From positions 32,001 through 96,000 of IMG/VR virus record IMGVR_UViG_3300020048_000039: 64,000 nt of DNA. One strand, given 5' to 3'. Both the position numbers and the translations under genes were made by a program. Shown here in pieces: positions 13,183-52,962 of the stretch (its first letter is position 1; each line of letters begins with the position of its first letter). A model generated the notes under the pieces. That model did not search any database, was not told where the DNA came from, and was given only the letters and a program-made list of their open reading frames with translations. The DNA is from a virus.

Positions 13183-13254
13183 TGCGGGGTGGAGCAGAGG
13201 TAGCTCGTGAGAATCATAATCTTAAGGTCGTGGGTTCGAATCCCACTCCCGCTA
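13183..13254 (+). tRNA. trnM: tRNA-Met(CAT) with initiator-like acceptor and D arms; CCA not encoded
   Basis: Cloverleaf: TGCGGGG/TCCCGCT (1:72 mismatch), D stem GAGC/GCTC, anticodon arm TGAGA-ATCATAA-TCTTA (CAT at 13215-13217), T arm GTGGG-TTCGAAT-CCCAC; discriminator A followed by CAA. Confidence 0.9.
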
Positions 13255-13421
13255 CAAATATACACAGTAAAGCCTCTTGCGAAAGCAATGTAACTGTGTT
13301 TAACTTTTTTGGTTGTTGGTATCAGTGTTTTTAGCAAAAAACGGGGCATACCGCCTAACATTTAATTTATTGGTCAAGAATGGTTTTTGTCGGCATTTGT
13401 CGATTTTTTTCAAAAAATAAG

Positions 13422-30962: not shown

Positions 30963-33308
30963 ATGGCAACATTTACAATTGATTTACTAAACGGTGGTGA
31001 ATATTTATTTAATGCCGATTTTGGTGGTAGTACTGGTAGCACAGCAACAATCACCGCTAATAATGGTCTAACTAAATTAGGCGATAATATTGCATTAGGC
31101 GGTACTTTAACTTGTGATACCACAATTAGTGGTGGTTATACACTGAGTTTATGTAGTGGTACTAAAATTAATACTGATGCAGGTTATCAGATAAGTGGGG
31201 TCACTATGTTTAGAACTTCTTCATCAGCGTTAGGTTCAATATATATTGGTCAATGTAGTGGTAGTGATGTGTCTATTGGTGATAATAATTTTGGTGTAGG
31301 CTTATGTGCATTAGCATCTAACACAACTGGTAGTAATAACATTGCGCAAGGCAATTATGCATTACAAGCCAATACTACAGGTTGTAATAACATTGCACAA
31401 GGCAATAATGCATTATATGGGAATACTACAGGTAGTTATAACATTGCACAAGGCTTATGTTCATTACGTAGCAATATAAGTGGTACTTATAACATTGCAC
31501 AAGGCGGTTTTACATTACAAGCTAATACTACAGGTAGTAATAACATTGCACAAGGTTATGGGGCATTATATGCCAATACTACAGGTAGTGCTAACATTGC
31601 ACAAGGCAATCTGGCATTACGTTGCAATACTACAGGTTGTAATAACATTGCACAAGGCTTATGTGCATTACGTAGCAATACTACAGGTTGTAATAACATT
31701 GCACAAGGCAATCAGGCATTATATAGCAATACTACAGGTAGTTATAACATTGCACAAGGCAATTATGCATTATATGGTAATACTGAAGGCGGTGATAACA
31801 TTGCACAAGGCTATCAAGCATTATATAGCAATACTACGGGTAGTGATAACATTGCACAAGGCGTTTCGGCATTACAAGCTAATACTGAAGGTATTAATAA
31901 CATTGCACAAGGCAATCAAGCATTACATAACAATACTACAGGTAGTAATAACATTGCACAAGGCTCTTATGCATTAGTCAGCAATACTACAGGTAGTAAT
32001 AACATTGCACAAGGCAATCAAGCATTACTTGGCAATACTACAGGTGGTGACAATATTGCACAAGGCAGTGAGGCATTATTAACCAATACTGAAGGTTTTG
32101 GTAACATTGCACAAGGCAATCAGGCATTATATAGCAATACTACGGGTAGTGATAACATTGCACAAGGCAATCAGGCATTATATACCAATATAAGTGGTGG
32201 TTATAACATTGCACAAGGCGGTTTTACATTACAAGCTAATACTACAGGTAGTAATAACATTGCACAAGGCTATTTGGCATTACGTAGTAATACTGAAGGT
32301 TTTGGTAACATTGCACAAGGCAATCAGGCATTATATAGCAATACTACTGGTATTAATAACATTGCACAAGGCAATTCTGCATTATATAGCAATACTACAG
32401 GTGGTGACAATATTGCACAAGGCTATTCTGCATTATATGGCAATGTTACAGGTAGTAATAACATTGCACAAGGCAATAATGCATTAGTCAACAATACTAC
32501 AGGTAGTCATAACATTGCACAAGGCAATAATGCATTAGCCAGCAATACTGAAGGTAGTTATAACATTGCACAAGGCAATTCAGCATTATATAGTAATACT
32601 ACAGGTTATGATAACATTGCACAAGGCAATTCAGCATTATCTGCCAATATAAGTGGTTATAATAACATTGCACAAGGCATTCAGGCATTAATGGCTAATA
32701 CTACAGGTTGTGATAACATTGCACAAGGAGTACAAGCATTATATAGCAATACTACAGGTTGTAATAACATTGCACATGGCTATGGAGCATTATCCAGCAA
32801 TGTAAGTGGCTATGATAACATTGCACAAGGCTATGGAGCATTATCCAGCAATGTAAGTGGCTGTAATAACATTGCTATTGGTTATTCATCGGGTGCTGAT
32901 GATTTACTCATTATATCTACAGAATGTAATCATGTGGTAATTGGCAATAACAGCACCACTTGTGCAGTAGCTAAAGTAGCTTGGACAACCACTTCTGACG
33001 AACGTGATAAAATGAACTTTGGCATAGTGCCATATGGATTGGATTTTGTAAATGAGTTGAATCCAATATCATATCAATTCAGGACATCAAGATGTATTGA
33101 TGAACCAAGCGGTGGAATAAAATATGGTTTCAAAGCACAAGACATATTAGCTTTAGAAGGTGAGAATCCTGTAATTATAAGTAATAATGACATTGAGCAT
33201 TTGAAATACAATGAGTCATCATTAATTCCAGTATATGCTAATGCAATAAAGGAATTGACGATTAAGATTCAAGAATTGGAAAATAGATTAACACTATTGG
33301 AAAAATAA
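30963..33308 (+). CDS. tail fibre with 31 x 17-aa repeats and C-terminal S74-like intramolecular chaperone
   Basis: NIAQG..AL..NTTG array; TSDERDK...YGFKAQD...LKYNESSLIPV..NAIKEL. Confidence 0.85.
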   Translation: MATFTIDLLNGGEYLFNADFGGSTGSTATITANNGLTKLGDNIALGGTLTCDTTISGGYTLSLCSGTKINTDAGYQISGVTMFRTSSSALGSIYIGQCSGSDVSIGDNNFGVGLCALASNTTGSNNIAQGNYALQANTTGCNNIAQGNNALYGNTTGSYNIAQGLCSLRSNISGTYNIAQGGFTLQANTTGSNNIAQGYGALYANTTGSANIAQGNLALRCNTTGCNNIAQGLCALRSNTTGCNNIAQGNQALYSNTTGSYNIAQGNYALYGNTEGGDNIAQGYQALYSNTTGSDNIAQGVSALQANTEGINNIAQGNQALHNNTTGSNNIAQGSYALVSNTTGSNNIAQGNQALLGNTTGGDNIAQGSEALLTNTEGFGNIAQGNQALYSNTTGSDNIAQGNQALYTNISGGYNIAQGGFTLQANTTGSNNIAQGYLALRSNTEGFGNIAQGNQALYSNTTGINNIAQGNSALYSNTTGGDNIAQGYSALYGNVTGSNNIAQGNNALVNNTTGSHNIAQGNNALASNTEGSYNIAQGNSALYSNTTGYDNIAQGNSALSANISGYNNIAQGIQALMANTTGCDNIAQGVQALYSNTTGCNNIAHGYGALSSNVSGYDNIAQGYGALSSNVSGCNNIAIGYSSGADDLLIISTECNHVVIGNNSTTCAVAKVAWTTTSDERDKMNFGIVPYGLDFVNELNPISYQFRTSRCIDEPSGGIKYGFKAQDILALEGENPVIISNNDIEHLKYNESSLIPVYANAIKELTIKIQELENRLTLLEK
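31031..31383 (+). repeat. 353-nt near-identical duplication, copy 2
   Basis: Matches 25277-25629. Confidence 0.9.
31332..32882 (+). repeat. 51-nt in-frame tandem array (31 cores) with constant core AACATTGCACAAGGC
   Basis: Cores counted from the translation; the period of 17 codons fits the 1551-nt span. Confidence 0.9.
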
Positions 33309-34198: not shown

Positions 34199-37165
34199 AT
34201 GCAAGAGATACCAATTTTTATTGTGCATTGTGAGCGAATACCACGAAGGCAAGCATACTATGTTAGGTTTCCACTTAATGATGGTCTTGTTGAAAAAATA
34301 AAAAGTCTTCCCGAAGACACCCGAAAATGGAGTGCTCTTAATTTGGCATGGGAAGTCAGTGCCTATTCATTATTCCTTTTAATTAAGAAGTACACTAAGT
34401 CAACCAAAATCCATTTCGATTTCGGCAATGATATTAGCCGTGGAATATTTATTGAGCAGGTTAAGAAAATTGAGATTGCCGAAGAAGAAAAAAGACTATT
34501 CATTGCTGACCTTAATATAAAGAAAGAGCATTGGGTTAAATATAAGGAAGAACTCGAAACTGAATACGTTAAGTATAGTGATAAAATGCACGCATTACTT
34601 AACGGTGATGTTAAATTATACAAGCACCAAATCACTGCTGCTCTTTTCATGAATGCCACCCGAAATGCATTAATTTCACATGAAATGGGTCTCGGAAAGA
34701 GCTTATCTTCAATACTTTACGTTGAAATGAATAAATTCGATAAAGTAGTAGTTGTTACTCCAAATTCTTTAAAGTTTAACTATTATTATGAAGTGGAGAA
34801 GTTCACTCAAAGCAATTCACACATAGTCAAGTGGAGAAAGAATAAATGCAGTATTGAAGATGCAAAATACATTATTGTTAATTATGATTTCTTCAACCCA
34901 AGTAGTAAAGAAGCATTTAAAGCAAAATGGGATAAACTTAAGATTGGTAAGGTTGATGCAGTGATTTGTGACGAATGTTTTCCATATAATACACCCGTTG
35001 AAACCAATATGGGTTCAGTGATGATTGGTGATATTGTGAGCCATAAACTTAATGTTAAAATTATATCCTATAATCATAGATTAAAAAAAATTGAACTAAA
35101 ATCAGTTAAGAGGTATTTATATAGAGGATATAAAGATATCGTTAAAATTAAATTATCGAACGGGAAAATAATTGAATGTACACCAGAGCATAAATTTTAT
35201 TCTGTTGATAGAAATAAATATATACCAATTAAGGATTTTAATTATGGAGAAAGACTATATGAATACGAGAAAGAAAAAAATATCGACAACAATAGTAGTC
35301 TGTCCACAATGTGGGGTGGAGTTCAAGCAAAAGCGAAGCTCACAAAAATTTTGTTCAAAAAGGTGTTCGGTTGCTTTTACTTCAAAAGAGAATATAATAA
35401 AAGCATTGAAGACAAGAAAAATGAATGGGAATTTATCACCAATTGTGACGAGAAAGTGCCAACATTGCGAAAAAGATTTTTCTGTTCAAGAAAGAATAGT
35501 CCAAAGATTTTGCTCAACAAATTGTTCGGCAAAATGGAGAATGATGCAGCCAGAAATAAGAATGGTGGTATATACAAAAGAATCTGGTCAGAAGATTTCA
35601 AAAGCAATTACGGAAAGCTACATCAAAAAACCAGAATTGAGAGAGCGTCTCTCGAAGAGAATGAAAGAAGTCAATCCAATGTCTCTATTAATAAATATAG
35701 AAAAAATGAAAGCAAAAAAACTAAACAGTACTTTTCTTTCAAGAGGTGGAAATGGACAATTAACCAAACAGCAATTAAAATTATATGGAGCAATTTCTGG
35801 AATGACTCAAATGAAAATGGAATTAGCAATACCAGTATTAATGCCACTAAGAAAAATGAATTTAATAGTAACTTCACCACCAACACACTACAAGGTGGAT
35901 ATTGGAATACCGAGTCTGAATTTAGCGATAGAGGTGGATGGAAATTCCCACAAAACGAAGAAATGGAAATTTTTAGACAAAAGAAAAACGGAAATTTTAG
36001 AATTGTTAGGGTGGAAAGTATTGAGATTTTGGAATCAAGAGATAGACGAAAATTTGGAACAGGTGGTAGCCAAAATAAAGGTGTTTATGATTTAGAAATT
36101 GAAGATAATCACAATTTTTTCGCTAATAATATACTTGTGAGTAATTGTCAGAAGCTCAAAAATATTAAAGCAAATACTTATAAGAATTTCAGCAAGACAT
36201 TTAGAAAAGATGCATTTAAGAATGAAAAGGTAAGTAAAATATTCTTATCTGGAACTCCTGCACCTAATCGTGCACATGAATTGTATTCGGTTTTAAACCA
36301 AATATCCCCAACTGATTTTGCAACAAAGAAATACTTTAATGAATATTATTGTGGTATGGTATATGATTTTACATATGGTTGGGGTTATGACCCTGACCAA
36401 ATGGAAACTCGTTTTGAAGAACTCTATCACAAAATTGCACCATTTACTCATAGAAAGAGAAAATCCGAAGTACTGAAAGACCTTCCAGATAAAATCTATC
36501 AAAAGGTTATGCTGGAAATGGACGATAGTGAATATAAGATTTATGATGAAATAGAATCTGGTGTTGCTAATGAATTTGTATTGCACCCAAATGGCAATGC
36601 CTTGACCACAATGGTTCGTTTAAGACAATATACTTCACACATTAAAATTAAACCAGTTATTGAGTTGATTGAGAATATCTTAGAAACTGGTGAAAAGGTT
36701 GTGGTTGTGGATTTCTTTAAGGAAGGTCTTTATGAATTAAAGAAACAGCTTGGTGATGTAGCAGCACTGCATACTGGCGACCAATCACCCGAAGTACGTG
36801 CTGACTTAGTTAAAGAGTTCCAAGACCCAAACGGTAAGATAAAAGTATTCCTTGGCTCAATACAAACATGTAATTATGGTTTGACATTAACAGCAGCCAG
36901 TAAGCTATTTATTTTATCACTACCATTCAGTGTTGGGGAATACGACCAAGTTGCAGACCGTTTACATAGAATTGGTCAAAAGGATGTTGTGAATATCTAT
37001 CCACTGATGTTCAGGGATTCTATTGATGAATATGTGTATGCTGCAATTGAGAGTAAGCGTAAGGAAATTGTTAAAGTAATTGACAACGAAGACTACGAAT
37101 CAAAAGTCGGTGAATCAATATTAAGTGAAGTCATTAAAAAAATAAAGGAAAAACATGGGAAGTAG
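34199..37165 (+). CDS. SNF2/SWI2-family helicase (SMARCAL1-like) interrupted by an intein
   Basis: HEMGLGKS (motif I), ICDE|CQK after splicing, LSGTP..NR, GEKVVV, GLTLTAAS, QVADRLHRIGQ. Confidence 0.92.
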   Translation: MQEIPIFIVHCERIPRRQAYYVRFPLNDGLVEKIKSLPEDTRKWSALNLAWEVSAYSLFLLIKKYTKSTKIHFDFGNDISRGIFIEQVKKIEIAEEEKRLFIADLNIKKEHWVKYKEELETEYVKYSDKMHALLNGDVKLYKHQITAALFMNATRNALISHEMGLGKSLSSILYVEMNKFDKVVVVTPNSLKFNYYYEVEKFTQSNSHIVKWRKNKCSIEDAKYIIVNYDFFNPSSKEAFKAKWDKLKIGKVDAVICDECFPYNTPVETNMGSVMIGDIVSHKLNVKIISYNHRLKKIELKSVKRYLYRGYKDIVKIKLSNGKIIECTPEHKFYSVDRNKYIPIKDFNYGERLYEYEKEKNIDNNSSLSTMWGGVQAKAKLTKILFKKVFGCFYFKREYNKSIEDKKNEWEFITNCDEKVPTLRKRFFCSRKNSPKILLNKLFGKMENDAARNKNGGIYKRIWSEDFKSNYGKLHQKTRIERASLEENERSQSNVSINKYRKNESKKTKQYFSFKRWKWTINQTAIKIIWSNFWNDSNENGISNTSINATKKNEFNSNFTTNTLQGGYWNTESEFSDRGGWKFPQNEEMEIFRQKKNGNFRIVRVESIEILESRDRRKFGTGGSQNKGVYDLEIEDNHNFFANNILVSNCQKLKNIKANTYKNFSKTFRKDAFKNEKVSKIFLSGTPAPNRAHELYSVLNQISPTDFATKKYFNEYYCGMVYDFTYGWGYDPDQMETRFEELYHKIAPFTHRKRKSEVLKDLPDKIYQKVMLEMDDSEYKIYDEIESGVANEFVLHPNGNALTTMVRLRQYTSHIKIKPVIELIENILETGEKVVVVDFFKEGLYELKKQLGDVAALHTGDQSPEVRADLVKEFQDPNGKIKVFLGSIQTCNYGLTLTAASKLFILSLPFSVGEYDQVADRLHRIGQKDVVNIYPLMFRDSIDEYVYAAIESKRKEIVKVIDNEDYESKVGESILSEVIKKIKEKHGK
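35113..35120 (+). promoter_or_regulatory. GTATTTAT late-promoter-like box inside the intein coding sequence
   Basis: AGGTATTTATATAG about 125 nt upstream of the nested endonuclease ATG. Confidence 0.45.
35244..36095 (+). CDS. nested (+1 frame) Zn-ribbon + DUF559/Vsr-like endonuclease inside the intein
   Basis: CPQCG..F......KFCSKRC and CQHCEKDF.......FCSTNC repeats; YKVDIG...LAIEVDGNSH...DKRKTEILELLGWKVLRFWN; ATG 35244 (or 35259; the ORF track starts at TTG 35172). Confidence 0.85.
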   Translation: MEKDYMNTRKKKISTTIVVCPQCGVEFKQKRSSQKFCSKRCSVAFTSKENIIKALKTRKMNGNLSPIVTRKCQHCEKDFSVQERIVQRFCSTNCSAKWRMMQPEIRMVVYTKESGQKISKAITESYIKKPELRERLSKRMKEVNPMSLLINIEKMKAKKLNSTFLSRGGNGQLTKQQLKLYGAISGMTQMKMELAIPVLMPLRKMNLIVTSPPTHYKVDIGIPSLNLAIEVDGNSHKTKKWKFLDKRKTEILELLGWKVLRFWNQEIDENLEQVVAKIKVFMI

Positions 37166-37514
37166 ATATGTTCATGGTATGAATCCGTTTCGTGATTTCT
37201 TAGTTGAGTCACTAAAATATGAATACAATATTGCAGGAAAAGCAGAAAAACGAGAGATTGACAACTCTTTTAAATATATTTTAGAAAACGTTTTGAATAA
37301 CGGAAAAGAGGCTGTACATTTGGACTTTGAAATCATCGATAAAAACGGTTGGTATAGTGTTAGGGGTAAAAACCCGCCAAGTGCACTGTGGCTCAGTGGA
37401 ATACTGGTCGAAAATGTTGAGTATATGTTAGATGCCAAGTCATTCGAAATTGGTGATAGAAAGTACAAATACAACCAAAAAACAGGTGAATTAACTTTTA
37501 AATTAAAAAAATGA
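37155..37514 (+). CDS. hypothetical protein
   Basis: 119-aa ORF overlapping both neighbours; start uncertain. Confidence 0.65.
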   Translation: MGSRYVHGMNPFRDFLVESLKYEYNIAGKAEKREIDNSFKYILENVLNNGKEAVHLDFEIIDKNGWYSVRGKNPPSALWLSGILVENVEYMLDAKSFEIGDRKYKYNQKTGELTFKLKK

Positions 37515-38467
37515 AGAAAAGTGTTGCAGTATTGTTCTCAGGTGGATTAGACTCCACCTATTTGGTGTGGAAAAATTTATCGGAAGGAAACACAGTATTT
37601 CCAGTTTACATCGAAATCACTAACAATCAAGTTAAATCTGTTTTGGAGAAAAATAGAATTGGGTTGTTGCGTAGAGAATTTCTAAAGGAGTTTAAGACTC
37701 CAATTGGTGATTGGGAAGAACCACTCGCAAATATTAATTATTTGTTAAGTGTTGGTGTTGATGCAAATGAAAGTGCATTGCGTTTGAGACAATTACCTGT
37801 TTGGATGGTAGGATTATCATTTATGCAAAGCATGAAAGTTGATGAAATTCAAATTGGCTATGTGTCAAATGATGATGCAATATCATATTTGGATGAAATT
37901 CAGGCTATTTACAAGTCTTATGAAAAGATTACGGAAACGACAATGATACCATTAACATTTCCATTAATAAAGAAACATAAATGGGAAATGGCATCTGAAT
38001 TGCCAAATCAATATTTGAAGTTGGTAATTAGTTGTGAGGGTGCTCATATTGTTAAAGAAAAGGACAGAGAATTAGTTTCGAAGAATGTATATGGTAGTAG
38101 TGGTGTAGCATCTGACCCTGATTATCTTATTGAGTATGAACCATGTTGTGATTGTCAACCCTGTAAAACAATAATGGCAACTGGAAGTTATTATGGTGTA
38201 TATGAATTTCCTGAAAACTATAAAAAACGTGTTGTTTATAATCATATTTGGGCATTATATCGTGAGGGATATAAAATAACCGATAAAGATGGAAAAAATC
38301 CATGTGAACCTGCAACACTTGACTATGCGAAATTCACTCCATACCAAATGGAATTACCACTCGATTGGTGTAACTACATACCAACGTTAGATTGCTGCGC
38401 TTGGAAGGGTGAAGAGAAATTGGCTGACCTTGAAGCCGATGGATGTTGTGATATTAGAAAAGCTTAA
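37511..38467 (+). CDS. queC: QueC-like PP-loop ATPase (7-cyano-7-deazaguanine synthase family)
   Basis: VAVLFSGGLDSTYL, and SC...PCCDCQPC Zn cluster. Confidence 0.6.
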   Translation: MKKSVAVLFSGGLDSTYLVWKNLSEGNTVFPVYIEITNNQVKSVLEKNRIGLLRREFLKEFKTPIGDWEEPLANINYLLSVGVDANESALRLRQLPVWMVGLSFMQSMKVDEIQIGYVSNDDAISYLDEIQAIYKSYEKITETTMIPLTFPLIKKHKWEMASELPNQYLKLVISCEGAHIVKEKDRELVSKNVYGSSGVASDPDYLIEYEPCCDCQPCKTIMATGSYYGVYEFPENYKKRVVYNHIWALYREGYKITDKDGKNPCEPATLDYAKFTPYQMELPLDWCNYIPTLDCCAWKGEEKLADLEADGCCDIRKA

Positions 38468-38482
38468 AACAAATAAAACTGA

Positions 38483-41400
38483 ATGGATAAATTAAATGTA
38501 TTAGCAGAAATTAAGGGATTCCTTGAGGGTTATAATGACGATTTAAAATATTTGGTAAATGTCGAAACCGACAATAACACCAATATTGCAGATTGCGTCA
38601 TTCATGAACCAAATAAAGAGCCAAGGATTGTAAAAATTCCCTACGAACCTTTCTTATACATGAAAGACTTGGGTAAGGCTAATCATACTTTGTATGAAGG
38701 TCACACCGAAGAATACATGGTGAGTAAACAAATTAAATATGGTATTACCATAGCTAAATTAAAAACTGGCAATCAGAAACGTTTGGTTAATGGATATTGC
38801 TATAAACTAACAAGTAGTAGGTCATATAATGATATCATCAACTATATTAGGGATGGTGGATTAAATCCATATGAAAAACTTGTAGATGATGATGGTAGGG
38901 TTGTTAACGATGCAAAAGGCGAACCAATTTATCCATATCGTGATTTATTTTATTCTGTGAGAGGAACTGAACAATTCTTTATATCGAAACAATGTCGTTT
39001 GTTTAAGGGTTTTGAGGAATATAAAGATGTTCACAAAGTTACATTTGATATTGAAACCACTGGTTTGAGGCATCAAATAGCAAGAATGTTTGCAATTGGT
39101 GTCAGAGATAATAGGGGATTTGAAACAATACTTGAATTGGATAAGTTAGATGACAATGAATCCGAAATCAGATTAATTCAAGACTTCTTTAATTTAATTC
39201 AGATTTTAAAACCTGCTGTAATTTCAGGATATAATTCCGAGAATTTTGACTTTGAGTTTATTCTTGGTAGAGCAAAAGTTCTTAAAATGGATTTGGAAGC
39301 AGTTCCCACAAGCCTCAAAGAAGGGGTTCATTTAAGGAGAAGACCCAATACATCTGTAAAATATGGTAATACTGCTGACAAATTTACTGCTACTGAAATG
39401 TGGGGTATTTCTGTTATTGATATTATTCATGCTACAAAAAAGACTGCTGCTGTTAATACCGAAATTAAAGCAACTGGCTTAAAATATATTGCCAAGCATG
39501 AAGGAATTGCGAAACCAAATCGTACCTATATTAAGGGTGAAGATAATTCGATTGGAAACTTCTATGCACAAAATAAAACCTTTTTAATTGACGAAAGTAA
39601 TAATTATATCCAGTTACCTGCTAAATATCAGGAAGTTGGAAAGAAATTATATGTTCTTCAAGGCAATAAAGGAAGGATTAGTGAAGCAAAGTACAAAGAA
39701 AAAAGAAACGAATATCTCAGCGAATGTCCAGAATTTGTAGAATGGTTTAGAAATGAAGCATTATCTAAAGGACTAATTACCTTTATTAGTGGTAAGAAAC
39801 TTGTTAAGCAATACTTGCTTGATGACCTTTGGGAAACTGAACAGGTTGACGAACTCTACAATCAATCATCTTTCATGTTAGGTAAGATTGTTCCAACTAC
39901 ATATCAGCGAGTCTGTACGATGGGTACTGCTGCTATTTGGAACTTACTTTTAACTGCGTGGAGTTACGAAAACGACTTAGCAATACCAATTTGTGATAAA
40001 ACCATAAAATTTAGTGGTGGTTTGGCAAGGTGTTATAAAGTCGGATTTACAAGGCGAATCAAAAAGATTGACTACGCTTCCTTGTATCCTATGATACAGT
40101 TATCAGAAGATGTATTCCCAATGTTTGATGTTACTGGCGTAATTAAAAAACTTTTACTTTACTTAACAACAACACGCAATATTTACAAGAAACTTGCAAA
40201 TAGTGATGAACTTAATGAAGAAGAAGTCATGTTGTTGAAACAAATCGACCATGAAGTTCACATCAAGTATCTTAATAATACTCTGACAACCGAAGACCGT
40301 GCTATGTTTAAGATTAAACAGCTACCTATCAAGATTTTGAACAACTCGTTGTTCGGTGCTTTGGGTTCTGCTATTTCGTTTAACTGGTCTGATAATGTTT
40401 GCGCTGCTCGTATTACCTGTACTGGTAGACTTCACCTAAGACATGCAATTGATTGGTTTACTGATTATGATTGTGTGGCTTTACTTGCAGTAACTGACGG
40501 TATTAACTTTAACTATCCCGAAAAGAGTAGAATTAGAGTTACTGACACTACTCAAACCATTGAAGATGAAGAACAAGATGTTGAAGAAATGTGGCAGTAT
40601 GGTGGTAAGAAAGGCTTAAATGCACTTATAGAAAAGTACAATACAGAAGAAATGTCGTCACCATACATGTCTGTTGATGATGATGGAGATTCAATTTCAT
40701 GTTTGAACCTTTCACGTATTAACTATGCAACTCTTTCATTGGCAAAGGATAAGAAAACCAAAGAAATGAAAGAAAAGGTTAAGCTAACTGGTAACACCAT
40801 AAAGTCAAAAGTAATGCCAGAATATATCGAAGAATTTATCGATAAAAGCTTAACTATGGTACTTCATGGTCAAGGCAAAGAGTTTGTGGACTATTATTAT
40901 GACTATTGTGATAATATTCGTTACATGCAAATTCCATTAAAGAAAATTGCAAGTAAGAGTAAGATTAAAATGACTTTAGCTAACTACAAGAAAAGAGGTA
41001 AAGATAAAAATGGTAGGGATAAAGGTATTCAGGCACACATGGAACTTCTATTGGAAAAACGTGCCAAGATAGCCGAAGAACTTTTCGAAGTGCATAAAGA
41101 GTCATTTAACCTTACTAAAATAAAAAAGGAACTAACTGCTGACGATAAAATGAAGTTTGTTGCCAACTACATGCCACAAGAGCCTGAATTAGATTCTGTT
41201 GTATATTATGTTAATTCTGGCTACAGGAAATCGCATGGTGATTCACGAAAGATTGTTGATAAATTAACTGGTGAAGAAAGATTCTGTGCCACATTAATCA
41301 GCAATGAAGACTTACTTGATAATCCAAGCATGACTGGTATCTATAACTACGAAAAATATCTTGATGCATTCAACAAACGTGTTGAGTCATTATTGGTTGG

Positions 41401-42163
41401 ATTTGAACCTGAAATTCAGCAAAAGATTTTAGTTAAGATTGCTCAAAAAGATAATGCGAAAACAAATGTAAGTAAAGGTGATTTAATAAAAGCAGGATTT
41501 ACTCCTGATGATTTGGAATTAAAAAACTTTGATTCTGATGATTATGCTGAATCCATGTACTTAGAAGAAATGGAAGTTGATTTCTGGAATAAAACTGGAT
41601 ATGACCCAAGGAAAATCTGGAATGGATTTAAAATGAGGGAAGATTACAGAGTATATTATGAAATTTATGACGATGCTCTGGAGTTTTTAAATAAAAAGAT
41701 GAAAGAAAGTGATAAACCTGAAATAAAATCCATTAACGATGCGTATGGTGATGGTGATTTAGTTCTCATTAAAGATGGTAGTGAATATCACCTTGGTGCA
41801 TATAATGGCACATATCTTCAAATTGTTAGAGAAGATGTAAAAGTGCCTAAACATCAAATCGAAGTTGAGCAAGAAAATAGGCGTATTGAGAATGAAAAAA
41901 AACTTGAAGAGTTGAGAGCCAATGAATTAACCACCAAAACTGATAGGGATGTTTTCTTAGATGCTCAACAGGCAAAACAAATAAAGTATTTCTCAGCGTT
42001 TAAACAGCAGTTTAACATTCCACTTACATTGACCATGAATGAATTATTTTCAGAAGTACCAAATGCAAAAGATGCTTTTGATGATTTTATTGCTGAGTCA
42101 GATGGAATGCTTGATGAAGAAGCTTTGGAATATTCTGGTATTGATAACGATGATGATGTATAA
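38483..42163 (+). CDS. family B DNA polymerase with 3'-5' exonuclease
   Basis: ExoI FDIETTG, ExoII GYNSENFDF, ExoIII YLLDD, region A DYASLYP, region B KILNNSLFG, region C VTDG. Confidence 0.92.
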   Translation: MDKLNVLAEIKGFLEGYNDDLKYLVNVETDNNTNIADCVIHEPNKEPRIVKIPYEPFLYMKDLGKANHTLYEGHTEEYMVSKQIKYGITIAKLKTGNQKRLVNGYCYKLTSSRSYNDIINYIRDGGLNPYEKLVDDDGRVVNDAKGEPIYPYRDLFYSVRGTEQFFISKQCRLFKGFEEYKDVHKVTFDIETTGLRHQIARMFAIGVRDNRGFETILELDKLDDNESEIRLIQDFFNLIQILKPAVISGYNSENFDFEFILGRAKVLKMDLEAVPTSLKEGVHLRRRPNTSVKYGNTADKFTATEMWGISVIDIIHATKKTAAVNTEIKATGLKYIAKHEGIAKPNRTYIKGEDNSIGNFYAQNKTFLIDESNNYIQLPAKYQEVGKKLYVLQGNKGRISEAKYKEKRNEYLSECPEFVEWFRNEALSKGLITFISGKKLVKQYLLDDLWETEQVDELYNQSSFMLGKIVPTTYQRVCTMGTAAIWNLLLTAWSYENDLAIPICDKTIKFSGGLARCYKVGFTRRIKKIDYASLYPMIQLSEDVFPMFDVTGVIKKLLLYLTTTRNIYKKLANSDELNEEEVMLLKQIDHEVHIKYLNNTLTTEDRAMFKIKQLPIKILNNSLFGALGSAISFNWSDNVCAARITCTGRLHLRHAIDWFTDYDCVALLAVTDGINFNYPEKSRIRVTDTTQTIEDEEQDVEEMWQYGGKKGLNALIEKYNTEEMSSPYMSVDDDGDSISCLNLSRINYATLSLAKDKKTKEMKEKVKLTGNTIKSKVMPEYIEEFIDKSLTMVLHGQGKEFVDYYYDYCDNIRYMQIPLKKIASKSKIKMTLANYKKRGKDKNGRDKGIQAHMELLLEKRAKIAEELFEVHKESFNLTKIKKELTADDKMKFVANYMPQEPELDSVVYYVNSGYRKSHGDSRKIVDKLTGEERFCATLISNEDLLDNPSMTGIYNYEKYLDAFNKRVESLLVGFEPEIQQKILVKIAQKDNAKTNVSKGDLIKAGFTPDDLELKNFDSDDYAESMYLEEMEVDFWNKTGYDPRKIWNGFKMREDYRVYYEIYDDALEFLNKKMKESDKPEIKSINDAYGDGDLVLIKDGSEYHLGAYNGTYLQIVREDVKVPKHQIEVEQENRRIENEKKLEELRANELTTKTDRDVFLDAQQAKQIKYFSAFKQQFNIPLTLTMNELFSEVPNAKDAFDDFIAESDGMLDEEALEYSGIDNDDDV

Positions 42164-46461: not shown

Positions 46462-49400
46462 ATGGCAATTTATAAGATAATAAAACCCATCGAAGAACTC
46501 TATAACAATGCAGATGGTAATGATGATATTCTTTCAGATATTGGAACTACTGCCGAAGTTAGAATGGGACACACAATAACTCCAGATAACACAGTAAATG
46601 AGTTTGGCGGTGATTCATTGTATTCACACGATGATAGTATTGGTGATGACGAATTTCCTGCTTATAATAATGCAGACTCTTCACCTTCAATAGAGAACAA
46701 CCTAAATGCCAATTCTGCAATGTATAATGAAGACTTGGAATATAATCATGTTAGTGATGCAACCCAAGACACATACGTAATAGGTGAAGAATTTCTTGGC
46801 ACTGATAAGCGTTTTGAAGATGAATTTGAAATCTTTAAAAATCCCAAATCAATTAAAAACCTAAGAAAAGACATTAAAGGGATTATCGATATGAAAACTG
46901 GCGATTTTTATGTTGCCAACTATAATATGATGTTACATATTGATTTAGCACGATGGTTAAATGTGAAATTAGGTTTTAATATTCCCGAAAAATGGAATGA
47001 TTTGTATGATGGTACTACATACTTAGCAGTACAGAGACGCAAGGATTCTAATATTTTTGGTTTATCAGAAGTTTATACATATGAAGATTATAATATGGAT
47101 GACTATGAAATCGAAAGAATCATAAGTGCATTTGAAAAAGCAAACCAAAAAAATCCTACAATAGAATTTAGTCTTGAGGGTATTGAAAGAAAAACTAAGC
47201 CAGAACCTGTTGATGCATTAGATGAAAGAGTATTATCATCAATGGCTGGTAGTTCCAGCGTTGAAGTTAAACAGAAATGTAGATTAGCAGGCAACGGTAA
47301 CACAAGCACACCTTGTAATCAGGGTGATATTGGTAATCTCAACATTAAGCCACTAAAAGAAGCATACGTCAATCTTCCATATAATAAAACGTATTGGGGA
47401 TGGGTTTCACCAGAGAATCAATTTACACAAGTTCCTGAACTAAAACATGCAGCATTCATCGAAAAAAGATATCCCGACATGTGGGACACCGATAAAATAT
47501 TCGACAAAGCATTTGCAGATGGATGGGTAAGAGTAATTTACGAATATTATCCAAATAGATACAAAGGTACGTTATCACTAAATGGTGGTGATGAAGAACG
47601 TGTTTTACATGTATTAAAAAACATATTTCTTGATAGCATTAGGTGGAGTAATACTACAATTTATTTACAATTTGAGAATCCAAATACTTCACGTGTTTTT
47701 AACACTGGTGATTCAGAGGGTAAAGCAGAATTGGCTAATTATTTAGGTGGACTTAACGAAATAAATGAAGAATCATTGGGTGTTATTGATTATGAAGACG
47801 TAGAATTGAACAATCCGATTGAAATGTTTAAAAATCCTAAATCACTGAGGAATTTAAAACCAAGCATCAGGGGAATTATTGATGCTGAGACTGGTGATTT
47901 ATATGCTGCAAACACATCCAACTATTTCCACAATATGTTAATTAAGTGGCTTAATCAAAATGTTGGCACACATTATACTGATAATTATAACTTAATATAT
48001 AAAAGTCCTGATGAACTTATTCCAGTCCAAAGAGACCAAAACACCAACGTGTTTAAATTAGGTGAAATGTATCCTACCAATCTTGATAAGGAAATGGAGG
48101 GTAGACGTGAAATGCTTGCTAAAATAAAAAATGGTTTAGCATTGGCAAAACAAAAGAATCCAAGTATTGAGTTTATACCTCAAACAATCGATAGTATTGA
48201 AATGCATGAACAATTAAATGAAGAGATTGATGCCAGTGAAGCATATAGAGATGAAGATGGATTGCAAACTATTCTTGATGGAAAACGTAATGTTGGTGGC
48301 TATGTAACATATAATAGAAAAAATGTTATTCAGATGTTGGAAGATACTGGATTGAACATTCTCCCACTCAGTGATAATCCATATGGCTTAGTAATAGTGT
48401 TTAATGATAAAGGAAGAGAAAATGCAATGAGGTTATGGAAGTTTGCAATATCTAAGGGTGGTTATTTTCAAGATAGTACACCTGATGAAGCACGCTTTAT
48501 TGGAAAAATGCTCGAATATACTGATACATCAATAGAAACCTATGTTAATAGAATATACGATGAAAACAGTCAGAGAAGAAAACAATCATTAAATGAAGAT
48601 TTTGATGATAATAAATATGTTGCTGTAGTTACACCCGATATGCAATTAATTAAAGGTACTACACACAATGCAATTTTTAAACAATTATTTCCCGATATTG
48701 AAGGTTATGCTGAAAAATATGACCATGCATTCGAAAATGGATATGTTAGGGTTATATGGAATGAAAATGAATATCAGGGTCAACCAATAATACACGCCAG
48801 TTTCGAAGGTAACAAAGCAAATCTGATTGCTGCCCTTAAAAGATTTTATTATAAAGAGATTATTACGAATAGAAGTAGTGTTAATATCGATATTTTTGAG
48901 ACAGGTAAAAGTTTAGGGTTCATCTTACCAGAACAAAAACAGGCATTCAGTGCATTCATGAGTGGATTGACAGAAGATATTGAAGAGGGTGTTGGCGATA
49001 AATATGTTGAAAGAAAATATCATATGCAACCAGAGTTTGACGACTTTGAACAATTATATAGAAACAAGCTCAGTACCGAAGGGCATGACGAAGTTGTGTA
49101 CGATGATACTAATAAGGGTGGTACTTTAAGGATTATTAAGAACCCAAAATCATTGAATAGTGTTGGTGCGGATGTTAGAGGTGTTATAGATAGAGAAGGA
49201 AATTTTTATACCGAACAACGAGTATCTGGAAAGGTACATGTTGCAATTCTTGGTGTGTTGGAAGATTTGGATTTAATTCCAGAAGATTGGGATTGGGGTG
49301 AACACTTACCAACAGATTTTATCACGGTGCAAAGAAGTAAAGATGAAAATGCTATTTTACTTAGTGAGAAGACCGAAATGATGACACCACCAGAAGAAAG

Positions 49401-52400
49401 AGACCCTGAATATTATGGAGCAGGGTATTGGGAAAGTTTTCCATCGTATGAAGAAGCATATCCAGAATTTCAGAAATTTATTGATAGAGCTAAAGCAAAG
49501 AACCCAAGCATTAATTTCATTAATGCAAATATCGTCTATTATGAGGGTAATGGTTCTAAAAATATAAAAGAATATAATAATTTTGATAATGGTGTTGACG
49601 GTTTGGAAAATAGTAGTACCTTTGCAGCCGAAATCCCTGTAAATACCAGTACTGAAATGATGACTGAAAATAAATTAATGTCTTTAAATGATTTACCATT
49701 CAAAGCGGATGTTGAAGCAATGGGGGGTAGTATTCATGCAGTGGGAGGAAGCGTGCGTGATTCATTCTTAGGTAAAGATTCGAAGGATTTGGATGTTCTT
49801 ATTACTGGTGTTCCGCTTGATGACTTAGAAAGAATCGTTTCTAAATATGGTCGTGTTGACTCAGTTGGAAAATCGTTTGGTGTACTTAAGTTCATGCCAA
49901 ATGGTGTAGATTTAGATGAACCTATTGACATTGCGATTCCAAGGACAGAGAAAATGACTGCTGGTGGTGGTCATAAAGACTTTGACGTAACTTCAGACCA
50001 TACGTTACCGATTGAAAGGGATTTAGAACGTAGAGACATTACCATCAATGCAATTGCAAAAGATGCTAACGGTAATATTATTGACCCGTATGGTGGACAG
50101 GAAGACCTTAAGAATAAAATAATCCGTGCAGTTAATCCACAGGCATTTAGTGATGACCCGCTTCGTATGCTCAGGTGTGTGGGATTTGCAAGTCGTTTTG
50201 GCTTTACTATTGAGCCAACTACAATGAAAATGATTCAGGACACTGCTGATAGAATTTCAGGTATTGCTACTGAAAGATTGTTAATTGAGTTTGATAAAAT
50301 AATTAAAAAAGGTAACATTAGACTTGGTGTACAATTATTGAAGGATACTGGCTTATTTAAACATATCTTTGGATTTGACATACAGCAATCAACGATTGAT
50401 AGAAGTCCGTTTGAAGAAGTACGTACAATGGGTGAATTTCTATACCTGTTAATACGTTTATCACCAAATCCTGCTGAATTTTACTTGGGTAAGTTTGCAA
50501 CGGAAGATGCAAAACGTGATAAGATATACAAAGAAATTAAGGCATTGGATATTGGTTTGAGTAATCAAAACGATAATCCAATTGCGTTAAGGTCTATTGC
50601 ACATAACATGTACACGATTGCACCAGAATCTTTAGGTAGTGAAATATTACCAGAAGCACTTGAAATAGCTGCACAGGAATTGTTATCAGGTAAATATCCA
50701 AAGACTGTTGGAGAATTAGCTGTTAATGGAAATGATTTACTTGCAGCAGGTTTGAAGGGTAAAGAGATTGGTGATGCGCAGAGAAAAATGTTATTGAAAA
50801 TATATTCAGATAAACTTCCTAATGATAAGGATTCATTGTTAGCATTATTGGGTAATAATGATTTGGATGAAGCTAATTTAAAGAAAGCAGCAGAAATGGT
50901 GCGAAAATATACCGTAGATGAAAAAAAGGAAGATTTTGATGAAGGTGTTGGTGATAAGTACGCAGAAAGAAAATTTGGTATACCTGATGCTGGTGCTGAG
51001 TTTGATACACTATATAGGCAAGCAAAGGCTGTTAGTGGTGAAAAACCAGTGGCATATGTTAATGGTTTTAACACCAAGACGAATGCTAAAGAGCAATCAC
51101 CAATTTTCTTGAATCCAAAATCATTAAACGGATTTGATAATGCAGTACGAGCAATTTCAGATGAAAGTGGTAATTTATATGTGGCGCAAAAGAATTATGG
51201 ATTTACTCATGGTGATATATCAGTAGCATTGGGATTTTTTAGAAGTAACTATCAAATATTCGAAAGCTACGATAGATATACAACGTATCATAGAGTAGAT
51301 GCAATGCCAGCGTTTGGAATTTCACCAACAAATGAACAATATTTGAAGAAAGGTAATGAAGAAATTGTTGAGAATTTATTAAATGCTGCACGTCAGAAGA
51401 ATCCACAATATGATTTTACGACAGATTACTTTGAGTATGTGAGTGGTAAATACAATGATGAAGTTGGCGTTGATGAAGGTGTTGGAGATAAGTATGCTGA
51501 AAAACGTTTTGGTATTCCTGATGCTGGTGCTGAGTTCGAAAAGAAGTACCAACAAAATAGATTAGTGATTGACGGTAATGAACCATTTGGTTATGTTAGT
51601 GATTTTATTGATTGGAAAGGTAAAACAAGTCCTGAAAAAGTGCCTGTTTACAAAAATCCAAAATCATTAAGAGATTTTGATTATAATGTAAGGGCAATAT
51701 CTGATACACAGGGTAATTTATATGTTGCACTTGTTGACGAAGCATTCAATCATGGCGAAATGGCTGCACATATTGGTTTAATGAATGGTGATGATACTAT
51801 ATATGAGAGAATCACTGATTTTCTATTACTAAATAGGGTCAAAGATAAGGATGTGTTTGGATTTGCTGATAGTAGTGAAGAAGAATATAATCAAAGTAAT
51901 GAAGACCGTAAGCGTGTTACAGAATTGCTTAACATAGTTAAAAGAAGTAATCCACAATTTAAATTCATCCCAAAGTATTATGAAGAAATTACAGGAGATT
52001 TAAATGTTGATGAAAGTCTTGACGAAACAATAAAAGGTGGTAAATATATCATGTATCATGGTAGTAACCATGCATTCAATAAATTCACTGATGAATTTGT
52101 TGGTGGTGAAAGCGCAAACGACCAAGAAGGTGCTGGAATTTATTTCACAACATCTAAGGAAGAAGCTAATAGATATGGCAAATACATATACAAAGTACAG
52201 TTGAAACCAAGGAAGCTAACTAATATTGCAAACAAAAGATTTGTATCGGTAAGTGATATGACCAAGCTAATTAAAATGTCACCAACATGGAAAGATGATG
52301 TCCAAAATTGGGACGAAAATATCATAAGAGGACTTGCAATTGCAATAAAAAGCATAATGGAATATTCTGACAATGAAAAAGATTTATTCCAACAGATTGA

Positions 52401-52962
52401 GCATGACTTCTTTAGGTATCAACCGAGATTATATGTTCAAGGAATGACAAAATTGGGTTATGATGGTCAGCTAATTGATAAGGATTATGAGGGTATTGTG
52501 CATATCATTGTTTACAACCCTGAGATTATCACAATTCTCGAAAGTAATGTTGAAAATACCGAACCAATAAATGAAGAAGAAATGAGTAATATTGCTTATA
52601 GTGCTGTTGTGCTTGATAATGTATCACATCAGAAATTAGTTAAAGTGTTTAAACCTATGATTCCAAAGGATTGGGAAATTCTTGCACATCACATGACATT
52701 AAACTTAGGTGGTATCGACCCTAAGTTTGAACAGGATTTGGGTCGTGACATTGAATTAAGTGTTGTCGATTATGCTATGGATGATAAAGTAATGGCTGTG
52801 GGCGTTGAAGGTTATCCAACCAACAACAAGAAAGCACATATTACTATTGCCGTGAATAGAACTGTTGGTGGTAAACCTATGATGTCAAATGATTTAAGTG
52901 ATTGGAAACCAATCGAATTTCCATTACAAATAGATGGAACAATAACTGAAATAGAAAGATGA
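46462..52962 (+). CDS. 2166-aa polyvalent protein: 5x NPKS domain, 2x H/G(W/Y)VRV domain, class II tRNA nucleotidyltransferase, ART-like domain, 2H phosphodiesterase
   Basis: Motifs read directly from the translation; see the sub-features. Confidence 0.9.
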   Translation: MAIYKIIKPIEELYNNADGNDDILSDIGTTAEVRMGHTITPDNTVNEFGGDSLYSHDDSIGDDEFPAYNNADSSPSIENNLNANSAMYNEDLEYNHVSDATQDTYVIGEEFLGTDKRFEDEFEIFKNPKSIKNLRKDIKGIIDMKTGDFYVANYNMMLHIDLARWLNVKLGFNIPEKWNDLYDGTTYLAVQRRKDSNIFGLSEVYTYEDYNMDDYEIERIISAFEKANQKNPTIEFSLEGIERKTKPEPVDALDERVLSSMAGSSSVEVKQKCRLAGNGNTSTPCNQGDIGNLNIKPLKEAYVNLPYNKTYWGWVSPENQFTQVPELKHAAFIEKRYPDMWDTDKIFDKAFADGWVRVIYEYYPNRYKGTLSLNGGDEERVLHVLKNIFLDSIRWSNTTIYLQFENPNTSRVFNTGDSEGKAELANYLGGLNEINEESLGVIDYEDVELNNPIEMFKNPKSLRNLKPSIRGIIDAETGDLYAANTSNYFHNMLIKWLNQNVGTHYTDNYNLIYKSPDELIPVQRDQNTNVFKLGEMYPTNLDKEMEGRREMLAKIKNGLALAKQKNPSIEFIPQTIDSIEMHEQLNEEIDASEAYRDEDGLQTILDGKRNVGGYVTYNRKNVIQMLEDTGLNILPLSDNPYGLVIVFNDKGRENAMRLWKFAISKGGYFQDSTPDEARFIGKMLEYTDTSIETYVNRIYDENSQRRKQSLNEDFDDNKYVAVVTPDMQLIKGTTHNAIFKQLFPDIEGYAEKYDHAFENGYVRVIWNENEYQGQPIIHASFEGNKANLIAALKRFYYKEIITNRSSVNIDIFETGKSLGFILPEQKQAFSAFMSGLTEDIEEGVGDKYVERKYHMQPEFDDFEQLYRNKLSTEGHDEVVYDDTNKGGTLRIIKNPKSLNSVGADVRGVIDREGNFYTEQRVSGKVHVAILGVLEDLDLIPEDWDWGEHLPTDFITVQRSKDENAILLSEKTEMMTPPEERDPEYYGAGYWESFPSYEEAYPEFQKFIDRAKAKNPSINFINANIVYYEGNGSKNIKEYNNFDNGVDGLENSSTFAAEIPVNTSTEMMTENKLMSLNDLPFKADVEAMGGSIHAVGGSVRDSFLGKDSKDLDVLITGVPLDDLERIVSKYGRVDSVGKSFGVLKFMPNGVDLDEPIDIAIPRTEKMTAGGGHKDFDVTSDHTLPIERDLERRDITINAIAKDANGNIIDPYGGQEDLKNKIIRAVNPQAFSDDPLRMLRCVGFASRFGFTIEPTTMKMIQDTADRISGIATERLLIEFDKIIKKGNIRLGVQLLKDTGLFKHIFGFDIQQSTIDRSPFEEVRTMGEFLYLLIRLSPNPAEFYLGKFATEDAKRDKIYKEIKALDIGLSNQNDNPIALRSIAHNMYTIAPESLGSEILPEALEIAAQELLSGKYPKTVGELAVNGNDLLAAGLKGKEIGDAQRKMLLKIYSDKLPNDKDSLLALLGNNDLDEANLKKAAEMVRKYTVDEKKEDFDEGVGDKYAERKFGIPDAGAEFDTLYRQAKAVSGEKPVAYVNGFNTKTNAKEQSPIFLNPKSLNGFDNAVRAISDESGNLYVAQKNYGFTHGDISVALGFFRSNYQIFESYDRYTTYHRVDAMPAFGISPTNEQYLKKGNEEIVENLLNAARQKNPQYDFTTDYFEYVSGKYNDEVGVDEGVGDKYAEKRFGIPDAGAEFEKKYQQNRLVIDGNEPFGYVSDFIDWKGKTSPEKVPVYKNPKSLRDFDYNVRAISDTQGNLYVALVDEAFNHGEMAAHIGLMNGDDTIYERITDFLLLNRVKDKDVFGFADSSEEEYNQSNEDRKRVTELLNIVKRSNPQFKFIPKYYEEITGDLNVDESLDETIKGGKYIMYHGSNHAFNKFTDEFVGGESANDQEGAGIYFTTSKEEANRYGKYIYKVQLKPRKLTNIANKRFVSVSDMTKLIKMSPTWKDDVQNWDENIIRGLAIAIKSIMEYSDNEKDLFQQIEHDFFRYQPRLYVQGMTKLGYDGQLIDKDYEGIVHIIVYNPEIITILESNVENTEPINEEEMSNIAYSAVVLDNVSHQKLVKVFKPMIPKDWEILAHHMTLNLGGIDPKFEQDLGRDIELSVVDYAMDDKVMAVGVEGYPTNNKKAHITIAVNRTVGGKPMMSNDLSDWKPIEFPLQIDGTITEIER
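49595..49624 (+). promoter_or_regulatory. internal Bacteroidota-type promoter upstream of the CCA domain
   Basis: TTG(49595)-N19-TACCTTTG(49617)CA, followed by in-frame ATGs at 49657, 49660 and 49678. Confidence 0.5.
49678..50856 (+). other. cca: class II tRNA nucleotidyltransferase (CCA-adding-type) domain, without an HD domain
   Basis: AVGGSVRD...KDLDV, ARTE-like PRTE, RDLERRDITINAIA, DPYGGQEDL, FSDDPLRMLR, tail LAVNGNDL..G..IG. Confidence 0.88.
52042..52539 (+). other. ADP-ribosyltransferase-like domain (ART-PolyVal-like)
   Basis: MYHGS...GAGIYFTTSKEEANRYG..YKVQL...LGYDG...IVYNP. Confidence 0.7.
52582..52959 (+). other. 2H phosphoesterase / Trl1-type cyclic phosphodiesterase domain
   Basis: YSAVVLD, two HxT motifs (HMT at 52690, HIT at 52837), G.KPMMSNDL..W. 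Confidence 0.8.

Follow-up and report, generated by a model that had tools for sequence, protein, structure and literature searches.

A putative homing endonuclease gene overprinted in the +1 frame of an intein in a jumbo-phage SNF2-type helicase

The window analysed here, a 64-kb stretch at positions 32,001 to 96,000 of IMG/VR virus record IMGVR_UViG_3300020048_000039, contains a helicase gene that is interrupted by an intein, and the middle of this intein can also be read in the +1 frame as a nuclease-like protein. This raises the question of whether both readings are real, what keeps them open, and whether they belong to one mobile element. The source record is a metagenomic 128-kb fragment of a jumbo phage, estimated to be ∼39% complete, and related contigs are up to 360 kb long. 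We found that the dual coding is real and kept by selection, and that the non-canonical intein and the nested homing endonuclease gene very probably constitute one mobile unit at motif II of the SNF2 helicase. An initial annotation of this DNA had described the helicase open reading frame (ORF), the 390-aa intein, and the +1 ORF from the letters alone, and the ORF map, translations, and Pfam matches confirm its coordinates and descriptions. The features of the locus are listed below; A1 and A2 are the alignments of the endonuclease and of the intein, respectively, dN/dS is the ratio of nonsynonymous to synonymous substitution rates, and pLDDT stands for predicted local distance difference test score.

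34199–34975, + strand: N-extein of the SNF2-type helicase, residues 1–259, ending in ...VICDE, the first half of motif II / Walker B (Pfam SNF2-rel_dom, PHROG 62; contiguous with the C-extein in intein-less relatives)
34976–36145, + strand: class-1 intein, 390 aa, in the helicase frame (Pfam Intein_splicing; invariant residues in A2; exactly this stretch is missing from relatives)
34976–35269, + strand: N-terminal splicing region, intein residues 1–98, conserved in the helicase frame (sliding identity; PT-HINT match at residues 24–107)
35270–35992, + strand: helicase-frame "shadow" linker, intein residues 99–339, stop-free, otherwise unconstrained (no domain; dN/dS ∼1–1.5; deletion in the relative L008)
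35993–36145, + strand: C-terminal splicing region, intein residues 340–390, blocks F and G (kept in the mini-intein of L008; helicase frame better conserved from residue 371)
36146–37165, + strand: C-extein, starting with Cys+1 (CQKLKN, the rest of motif II) and including Helicase_C (Pfam Helicase_C; 80 IMG/VR relatives)
35244–36095, + strand: putative homing endonuclease gene (P0002), +1 frame, 283 codons and TAG (DUF559; pLDDT 88.8; dN/dS 0.15–0.41; ATG conserved in the relatives L004–L007)
35301–35366, + strand: zinc ribbon 1, C20, C23 ... C37, C41 (translation; C37 in A1; PHROG)
35457–35525, + strand: zinc ribbon 2, C72, C75 ... C90, C94 (conservation in A1)
35883–36083, + strand: predicted DUF559 / EDxHD nuclease core, aa 214–280, with E230, D232, H236, and D245 at nt 35931–35978 (Pfam; A1; 3hrl profile; Foldseek)
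35996–36085, + strand: doubly constrained segment, read as ..VESIEILES.. by the helicase frame and as ..LGWKVLRFWN.. by the +1 frame (both frames 0.68–0.91 identical; residues invariant in A1 and A2)

The helicase ORF (34199–37165) encodes 988 aa and is stop-free throughout, including the overlap with the endonuclease. Its product is a phage SNF2-type helicase (Pfam SNF2-rel_dom and Helicase_C; PHROG 62, DNA helicase), of which residues 260–649 are the intein. Cys1 of the intein directly follows ...VICDE, so that the insertion point (DE|C) lies within helicase motif II / Walker B. The intein matches Pfam Intein_splicing (PF14890) with 57.6 bits (cut-off 35.8) and an E-value of 1.7e-15; the match covers profile positions 9–155 of 155 and is split over intein residues 14–390. 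Moreover, C1, T69 and H72 of block B, N390, and Cys+1 are each invariant in A2. Block F is VYDLEIEDNHNF, and the intein terminates in ...LVSN, with Cys+1 next; the sequence through blocks F and G is ...VYDLEIEDNHNFFANNILVSN, followed by Cys+1 of CQKLKN. Between the splicing regions, residues 99–339 have no domain match in Pfam or PHROG in the helicase frame, in agreement with the initial annotation, which had seen no recognisable domain there. This linker is hydrophilic (grand average of hydropathy of -1.16) and rich in K, N, S, and E, and its AlphaFold2 model has a pLDDT of ∼30, which is weak evidence given the shallow alignment. A functional domain in the helicase-frame middle was considered and ruled out, as the segment matches no family, has dN/dS of ∼1 or above, and is mostly deleted in L008.

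The +1 frame is open from position 35172, and the ORF in it runs from ATG at 35244 to TAG at 36093–36095, encoding 283 aa. The start codon is its own, as had been proposed, and is conserved in relatives; the stop, however, does not lie just before intein block F but falls inside its first codons (D-L-E of VYDLE). The encoded protein matches Pfam DUF559 (PF04480) with an E-value of 4.6e-14 and 52.6 bits (cut-off 20.6), and carries two CxxC...FCSxxC zinc ribbons (C20/C23/C37/C41 and C72/C75/C90/C94). Residues C37, C72, C75, C90, and C94 are nearly invariant in A1, and the region of zinc ribbon 1 matches the N-terminal modules of PHROG HNH endonucleases. In the nuclease core, E230, D232, H236, and D245, which are invariant in the 41 homologues of A1, represent the EDxHD signature as defined for I-Bth0305I, and the spacing of nine residues between H236 and D245 is the same as that between H213 and D222 of I-Bth0305I (PMC3239194). 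A profile of the 41 homologues matches the DUF559 structure PDB 3hrl at 1.2e-12. The AlphaFold2 model of the protein has a mean pLDDT of 88.8, and its top Foldseek matches are 3hrl (template modelling score of 0.70 on the target), 3r3p (the catalytic domain of I-Bth0305I), and 1vsr (Vsr). On these grounds, the +1 product is a predicted zinc-ribbon EDxHD (Vsr-like) / DUF559 nuclease and a putative homing endonuclease, and the assignment made in the initial annotation, two zinc ribbons with a DUF559/Vsr-like nuclease, stands.

The coexistence of the two frames is not expected by chance. The overlap contains no stops in the helicase frame and 40 stops in the third frame. Across the window's 36 other genes, the same relative frame has 0.147 stops per codon, the longest open run being 56 codons, and by this background the probability of 283 open codons is ∼3e-20. 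Similarly, 5000 synonymous shuffles of the endonuclease yielded 12.9 ± 2.4 helicase-frame stops, with a minimum of four, and no other overlapping ORF in the 64 kb reaches 200 aa. A helicase-frame stop is possible only as T|AA, T|AG, or T|GA, hence its T sits in the third position of an endonuclease codon. Endonuclease codons ending in T are absent before codons starting with AA, AG, or GA (0/103), compared to 63 of 203 elsewhere (Fisher's exact test, 1.8e-13); these counts were made on the stop-to-stop stretch 35172–36092, and from the ATG at 35244 they are 0/97 and 57/186. Among the pyrimidine-ending codons, all 11 end in C before AA, AG, or GA, while elsewhere 11 end in C and 56 in T. The same holds when 74 distinct viral loci are pooled: T-ending codons precede AA, AG, or GA in 0 of 5716 cases and other codons in 3491 of 11943, and the pyrimidine-ending codons number 1194 with C and none with T, compared to 1405 and 3491, respectively. 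Since NNT and NNC codons are always synonymous, the host frame can be cleared of stops without an amino-acid cost to the endonuclease. This could be the reason for the +1 register, as each helicase-frame stop would be removable by a synonymous NNT to NNC change. The claim that stops are avoided and both frames are selected is thus borne out, the selection being of a different kind in each.

To be specific, dN/dS was calculated by the Nei–Gojobori method on the same nucleotides in both frames, for pairs within the window's clade (the window and the IMG/VR relatives L004–L007, whose endonucleases are 56–71% identical), where synonymous divergence is unsaturated. The values are 0.15–0.41 in the +1 frame and 0.94–1.53 in the intein frame, and the frame-specific comparison across homologous inteins that the initial annotation had suggested is therefore in its favour. 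Over the overlap, amino-acid identity within the clade is 0.56–0.72 in the +1 frame and 0.37–0.53 in the intein frame. Sliding conservation in seven sequences shows the helicase frame ahead up to intein residue ∼90, the +1 frame ahead at residues ∼95–360, and the helicase frame again from residue 371, the switches coinciding with the ATG and the TAG of the endonuclease. Hence, the +1 frame is under amino-acid selection, and the helicase frame is only kept stop-free, by the use of C- instead of T-ending endonuclease codons.

At intein residues 341–370, both frames are highly conserved (0.68–0.91 identical in the same seven sequences). Here the end of the nuclease core, ..LGWKVLRFWN.., is overprinted on ..VESIEILES.., which makes up the first strand of the C-terminal splicing region; the invariant residues of this segment are E347, E350, L352, E353, and R357 in A2 and G256, W257, R261, and N264 in A1. 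Therefore, the endonuclease does not lie in a purely neutral spacer. The initial annotation had viewed the intein as a neutral shelter for a separately encoded endonuclease. A separately encoded endonuclease in an intein whose own frame stays open solely for translation and splicing of the essential helicase is supported by stop avoidance, dN/dS, recurrence, empty alleles, and scattered occurrence (see below), but "neutral" is slightly too simple, as the last ∼30 endonuclease codons are conserved in both frames.

A blastn search of GenBank phages with the helicase gene gave no match, while protein-level searches were successful. By tblastn, we found 40 GenBank phage records, mostly of Vibrio phages, with every match within an annotated helicase gene. 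In Vibrio phages K391, CP-T1, and 159E43-1b, the endonuclease match (∼30% identity) is in the +1 frame relative to the helicase coding sequence, which is open and has the intein junctions DEC|F...HN|CHH. These three phages also follow the stop-avoiding codon rule, with 0/74, 0/66, and 0/68 codons ending in T. At such loci, GenBank annotates nothing beyond "helicase" or "coil containing protein".

Scanning IMG/VR with a profile yielded 299 relatives, and the layout was examined in the best 80. In all of these 80, the host frame is open across the whole endonuclease ORF, and the third frame never is. The host ORFs of the 80 are 617–2669 aa long, and the seven close relatives of the window's element share the layout. 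The overprinted hosts are helicases of the SNF2 and ResIII types, a helicase-methylase, and AAA+ clamp-loader proteins, and each of them has flanking intein profiles. Their junctions are mostly hhhDE|CF, with some DEAH|CF, and therefore the insertion site is Walker B. The layout is also present in 21 of the 23 zinc-ribbon relatives from bacterial genomes (Longilinea arvoryzae, Anaerolinea metagenome-assembled genomes, Roseicella, and others). As a control, we considered ordinary DUF559 genes in bacterial genomes, and only two of 57 were overprinted, the other 55 being not. Two metagenome proteins cross the frames, P0063 leading from the N-intein into the C-terminal half of the endonuclease, and P0084 from the endonuclease into the C-intein and extein. 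They may be decaying copies or results of indel errors, and we have not counted them as in-frame forms.

The distribution of the element is consistent with mobility. Fifty of 57 distinct related C-exteins are intein-less at motif II and read unbroken ...DE|SQKLKN. The natural empty alleles have GATGAA followed by AGT or TCN (Ser) at the junction, and not TGT, as the initial annotation had assumed, and all intein-occupied alleles have Cys+1. In the C-extein tree, the seven occupied alleles require at least six changes, five of which are forced by well-supported branches; with shuffled labels the mean is 6.7, and hence the occupied alleles are as scattered as shuffled labels. Some intein-less alleles (L067/L068 and L081/L085) have Cys+1 in place of Ser. 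Of these, L068 and L085 are sisters of the occupied alleles L012 and L007, respectively, in the extein tree, and their Cys+1 may fit precise loss of the intein or, alternatively, mark recent targets.

Other states were also found. L008 is a mini-intein that has kept the splicing regions but lost most of the endonuclease region. L180 (1867–3396), on a 3.4-kb contig binned as Lutibacter, is a fractured form, in which the helicase N-terminal part and N-intein end in a stop, an overlapping 252-aa endonuclease gene follows, and a new ORF encodes the C-intein and C-extein. In L182 (3321–5250), from an Oscillospiraceae metagenome-assembled genome, an intein-less ResIII-type helicase gene is overlapped at its start by a free-standing 213-aa homologue that has a single zinc ribbon. 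The empty, mini, fractured, and free-standing states are those expected from a homing cycle and from the endonuclease-invasion model of Dassa et al. (2009). As a separate observation, the helicase family of the window is an intein hotspot with three insertion sites (motifs I, II, and VI): at motif I (GLGK|...HN|T), L005 (900–4901) and L006 (924–5030) additionally have a LAGLIDADG intein of the canonical in-frame type, and L008 (1–2664) has one at motif VI (DR|C...HN|CHRIGQ).

Taken as one mobile unit, the intein and its nested gene would operate as follows. Ribosomes would read the helicase frame straight through, residues 1–98 and 340–390 would fold as a HINT domain around a 240-residue hydrophilic unstructured linker, and self-excision of the intein would restore DE-CQKLKN. 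Initiation in the +1 frame at the ATG at 35244, either on the helicase mRNA or on an internal transcript, would yield the 283-aa nuclease. In a co-infection, this nuclease would, by analogy with its family, cut intein-less helicase alleles at ...GATGAA|AGTCAR..., and repair would transfer the intein and endonuclease gene, together with the Cys+1 codon, to the cut alleles.

Several points weigh against this reading. The penultimate residue of the intein is Ser389 (..LVSN|C) and not the usual His of block G; this Ser is invariant in the window's subclade, and the Vibrio phage and L180 relatives have His at the equivalent site. Many inteins have a penultimate His in block G, but splicing does not require it. 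The AlphaFold2 model of the intein, based on eight sequences, is poor overall (mean pLDDT of 37.6), and therefore the disordered linker rests mainly on dN/dS and the deletion in L008. The Foldseek probabilities for the endonuclease model are 0.8–1.0, but the E-values range from 1.7e-3 to 3.6e-2, the top ones (1.7e-3 and 3e-3) being just above the 1e-3 line of that program. Regarding expression, there is no Shine-Dalgarno motif or credible promoter before the ATG at 35244 in the window. An AAGGA 8 nt upstream of it is not conserved in relatives; we dropped it as evidence of ribosome binding for this reason and because the window genes have no Shine-Dalgarno motif, their starts being preceded by A-rich leaders. 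A scan for sigma-70 promoters and terminators showed no enrichment (19 promoter-like sites compared to 15.4 expected). The ATG itself is at the same position in all close relatives (L004–L007), and in Vibrio phages K391, CP-T1, and 159E43-1b a Shine-Dalgarno-like GAGG precedes the endonuclease start by 7–10 nt. We infer splicing, translation of the +1 ORF in the window's phage, and DNA cleavage alike from sequence. Finally, the window comes from a metagenomic IMG/VR record.

The last point would matter if the nuclease were truly an in-frame domain of the intein, shifted out of frame by two indel errors of assembly or sequencing. Such an artefact is refuted in practice, with a negligible probability: the same +1 register is seen in more than 100 independent assemblies, among them those of isolates (for example, Vibrio phage CP-T1 and 24 phages of Vibrio lentus), the ATG and stop of the endonuclease are its own and conserved, and helicase-frame stops are absent by codon choice, which errors cannot generate. 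It is also very unlikely that the +1 frame is reached by programmed frameshifting from the helicase frame, producing a fusion of the N-extein, N-intein, and endonuclease with no start at the ATG. Such frameshifting is suggested by the 24 codons that are open in the +1 frame before the ATG (35172–35243), by the lack of a Shine-Dalgarno motif in the window's phage, and by A-rich runs after the ATG. Still, the ATG is conserved in all close relatives, with the Shine-Dalgarno-like GAGG before it in the Vibrio phages, the L180 and L182 homologues begin as independent genes at the equivalent place, no conserved slippery site was seen, and upstream of the ATG the +1 frame is the less conserved one.

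Slightly less probable again is that the helicase is produced as two parts that are then trans-spliced, in the manner of the "fractured genes" described by Dassa et al. (2009), so that read-through of the middle would be irrelevant. The endonuclease family is capable of this arrangement, being truly fractured in L180, and Vsr-like endonucleases were first found between the halves of split inteins (PMC2677866). However, the window has neither a stop after the N-intein nor a new start of the C-intein, the helicase frame being continuous at 34199–37165, and an untranslated middle would not stay stop-free in more than 100 loci. Homing elements often decay after fixation, as has happened at the same site in L008, and P0063 and P0084 resemble frame-broken copies; the window's endonuclease might accordingly be an inactive relic, the intein persisting by vertical descent only. 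We consider this unlikely, since the ORF is intact and keeps all four EDxHD residues and eight zinc-ribbon cysteines, dN/dS to relatives is 0.15–0.41, and closely related intein-less targets are present in the same virus group.

The combination of an intein and an endonuclease gene in another frame is not new as an architecture, and the statement in the initial annotation that no formal description of it was known turned out to be wrong. As cited in PMC2677866 and 10.64898/2026.09.14.751524, Gorbalenya (1998, NAR 26:1741) proposed intein endonuclease ORFs in alternative frames or antisense. A survey of actinophages (10.1101/2025.01.02.630785) described an endonuclease VII-like enzyme in frame 3, as well as antisense LAGLIDADG and VSR-like enzymes, and a preprint on the cyanobacterial dnaX intein (10.64898/2026.09.14.751524) reported frame-specific selection for a +2 LAGLIDADG ORF. 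Like the intein of the window, these non-canonical inteins are contiguous and open in their own frame with a domainless middle, and their splicing blocks enclose a folded endonuclease that is read in a different frame; dN/dS is low for the endonuclease reading and high for that of the intein, and the distribution is scattered. They differ in the enzymes, +2 LAGLIDADG, frame-3 endonuclease VII-like, or antisense, whereas the window has a same-strand +1 zinc-ribbon EDxHD/DUF559 protein. The hosts differ as well, being superfamily 2 helicases and clamp loaders with insertion at Walker B in the window's type. Moreover, the preprints call the out-of-frame architecture rare, while in the window's clade it is the rule (80/80 of the best viral relatives). 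In the literature searched, we found neither a same-strand +1 EDxHD endonuclease in Walker B inteins nor a demonstration that such a layout is clade-wide.

Dassa et al. (2009; PMC2677866) described free-standing genes for Vsr-like or GIY-YIG endonucleases that have split inteins on either side. As in the window, the 3' end of the endonuclease overlaps the C-intein coding region in these fractured genes; unlike the window, where the host frame is continuous, theirs is broken by a stop, a spacer of 27–51 nt, and a new start, and the halves trans-splice. L180 demonstrates that the endonuclease clade of the window can also adopt the fractured form. I-Bth0305I (Taylor et al., 2011; PMC3239194; PDB 3r3p), the prototype of the EDxHD family and proven by experiment to be a homing enzyme, shares with the +1 protein a Vsr-like core (predicted for the latter), the E/D/H/D residues, an N-terminal DNA-binding region with a C-terminal nuclease, and a length of ∼270–280 aa. 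I-Bth0305I is encoded in a group I intron of recA and has NUMOD-type motifs, whereas the +1 protein is encoded in an intein and has two CxxC...CSxxC zinc ribbons, and its activity is predicted. Out-of-frame HNH insertions without splicing domains have also been reported (PMC11855218). The ShiLan insertion is similar to the window in that an endonuclease is overprinted on a stop-free host frame and the distribution is disjunct, but it has no splicing domain and is thought to be retained as a protein loop, while in the window clear intein blocks flank the overlap.

All these observations can be combined into a broader reading, for which we see about even chances. According to it, the widespread zinc-ribbon EDxHD clade exists almost solely as +1 overprints in Walker B/DExH inteins of P-loop NTPases, at more than 100 loci in phages and bacteria; the interrupted genes encode clamp loaders, helicase-methylases, and SNF2/ResIII helicases. 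Because the last ∼30 endonuclease codons are under constraint in either frame, the composite would be an old unit whose parts co-evolve; its evolvability may stem from the +1 register; and the path of endonuclease gain and loss by inteins would be preserved in the free-standing, fractured, overprinted, and mini forms. If this is true, the co-existing forms would make a tractable system for testing the "splicing first, endonuclease later" model. The states seen among the relatives give a direct handle on endonuclease acquisition, and overlapping-frame intein endonucleases are the normal state of a large family of phage and bacterial elements, not rare curiosities. Gene callers miss such overprinted endonucleases. 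The locus is a clean natural case of dual coding over ∼850 nt, where selection acts on the protein of one frame and, in the other, only on freedom from stops, and can be useful as a benchmark for methods of overlapping-gene detection. In addition, inteins tolerating a 240-residue unstructured insert and new long-target EDxHD nucleases may interest protein engineers.

Several other features of the window were recorded. All its 37 ORFs of at least 200 aa, the nested endonuclease ORF aside, are on the + strand. Directly downstream of the helicase gene and upstream of a family B DNA polymerase gene (38483–42163), positions 37511–38467 (+) encode a QueC-like protein (a weak Pfam match) with a Cys-rich C-terminal extension, which hints at 7-deazaguanine DNA modification. 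Upstream of the helicase, a 781-aa protein encoded at 30963–33308 (+) comprises some 30 tandem units of ∼18 residues (..NNIAQG..AL..NTTG..) and is likely a tail fibre because of the endosialidase-chaperone (Peptidase_S74) domain at its end. At 165 codons, the chance +1 open run within this repeat gene is longer than any other in the window. A 2166-aa polyvalent protein encoded at 46462–52962 (+) has a tRNA nucleotidyltransferase / poly(A) polymerase head with an RNA-binding domain (aa 1093–1303) and also carries an ART-PolyVal ADP-ribosyltransferase domain (aa 1859–2023). The window contains one tRNA gene, for tRNA-Met, at 13183–13255.

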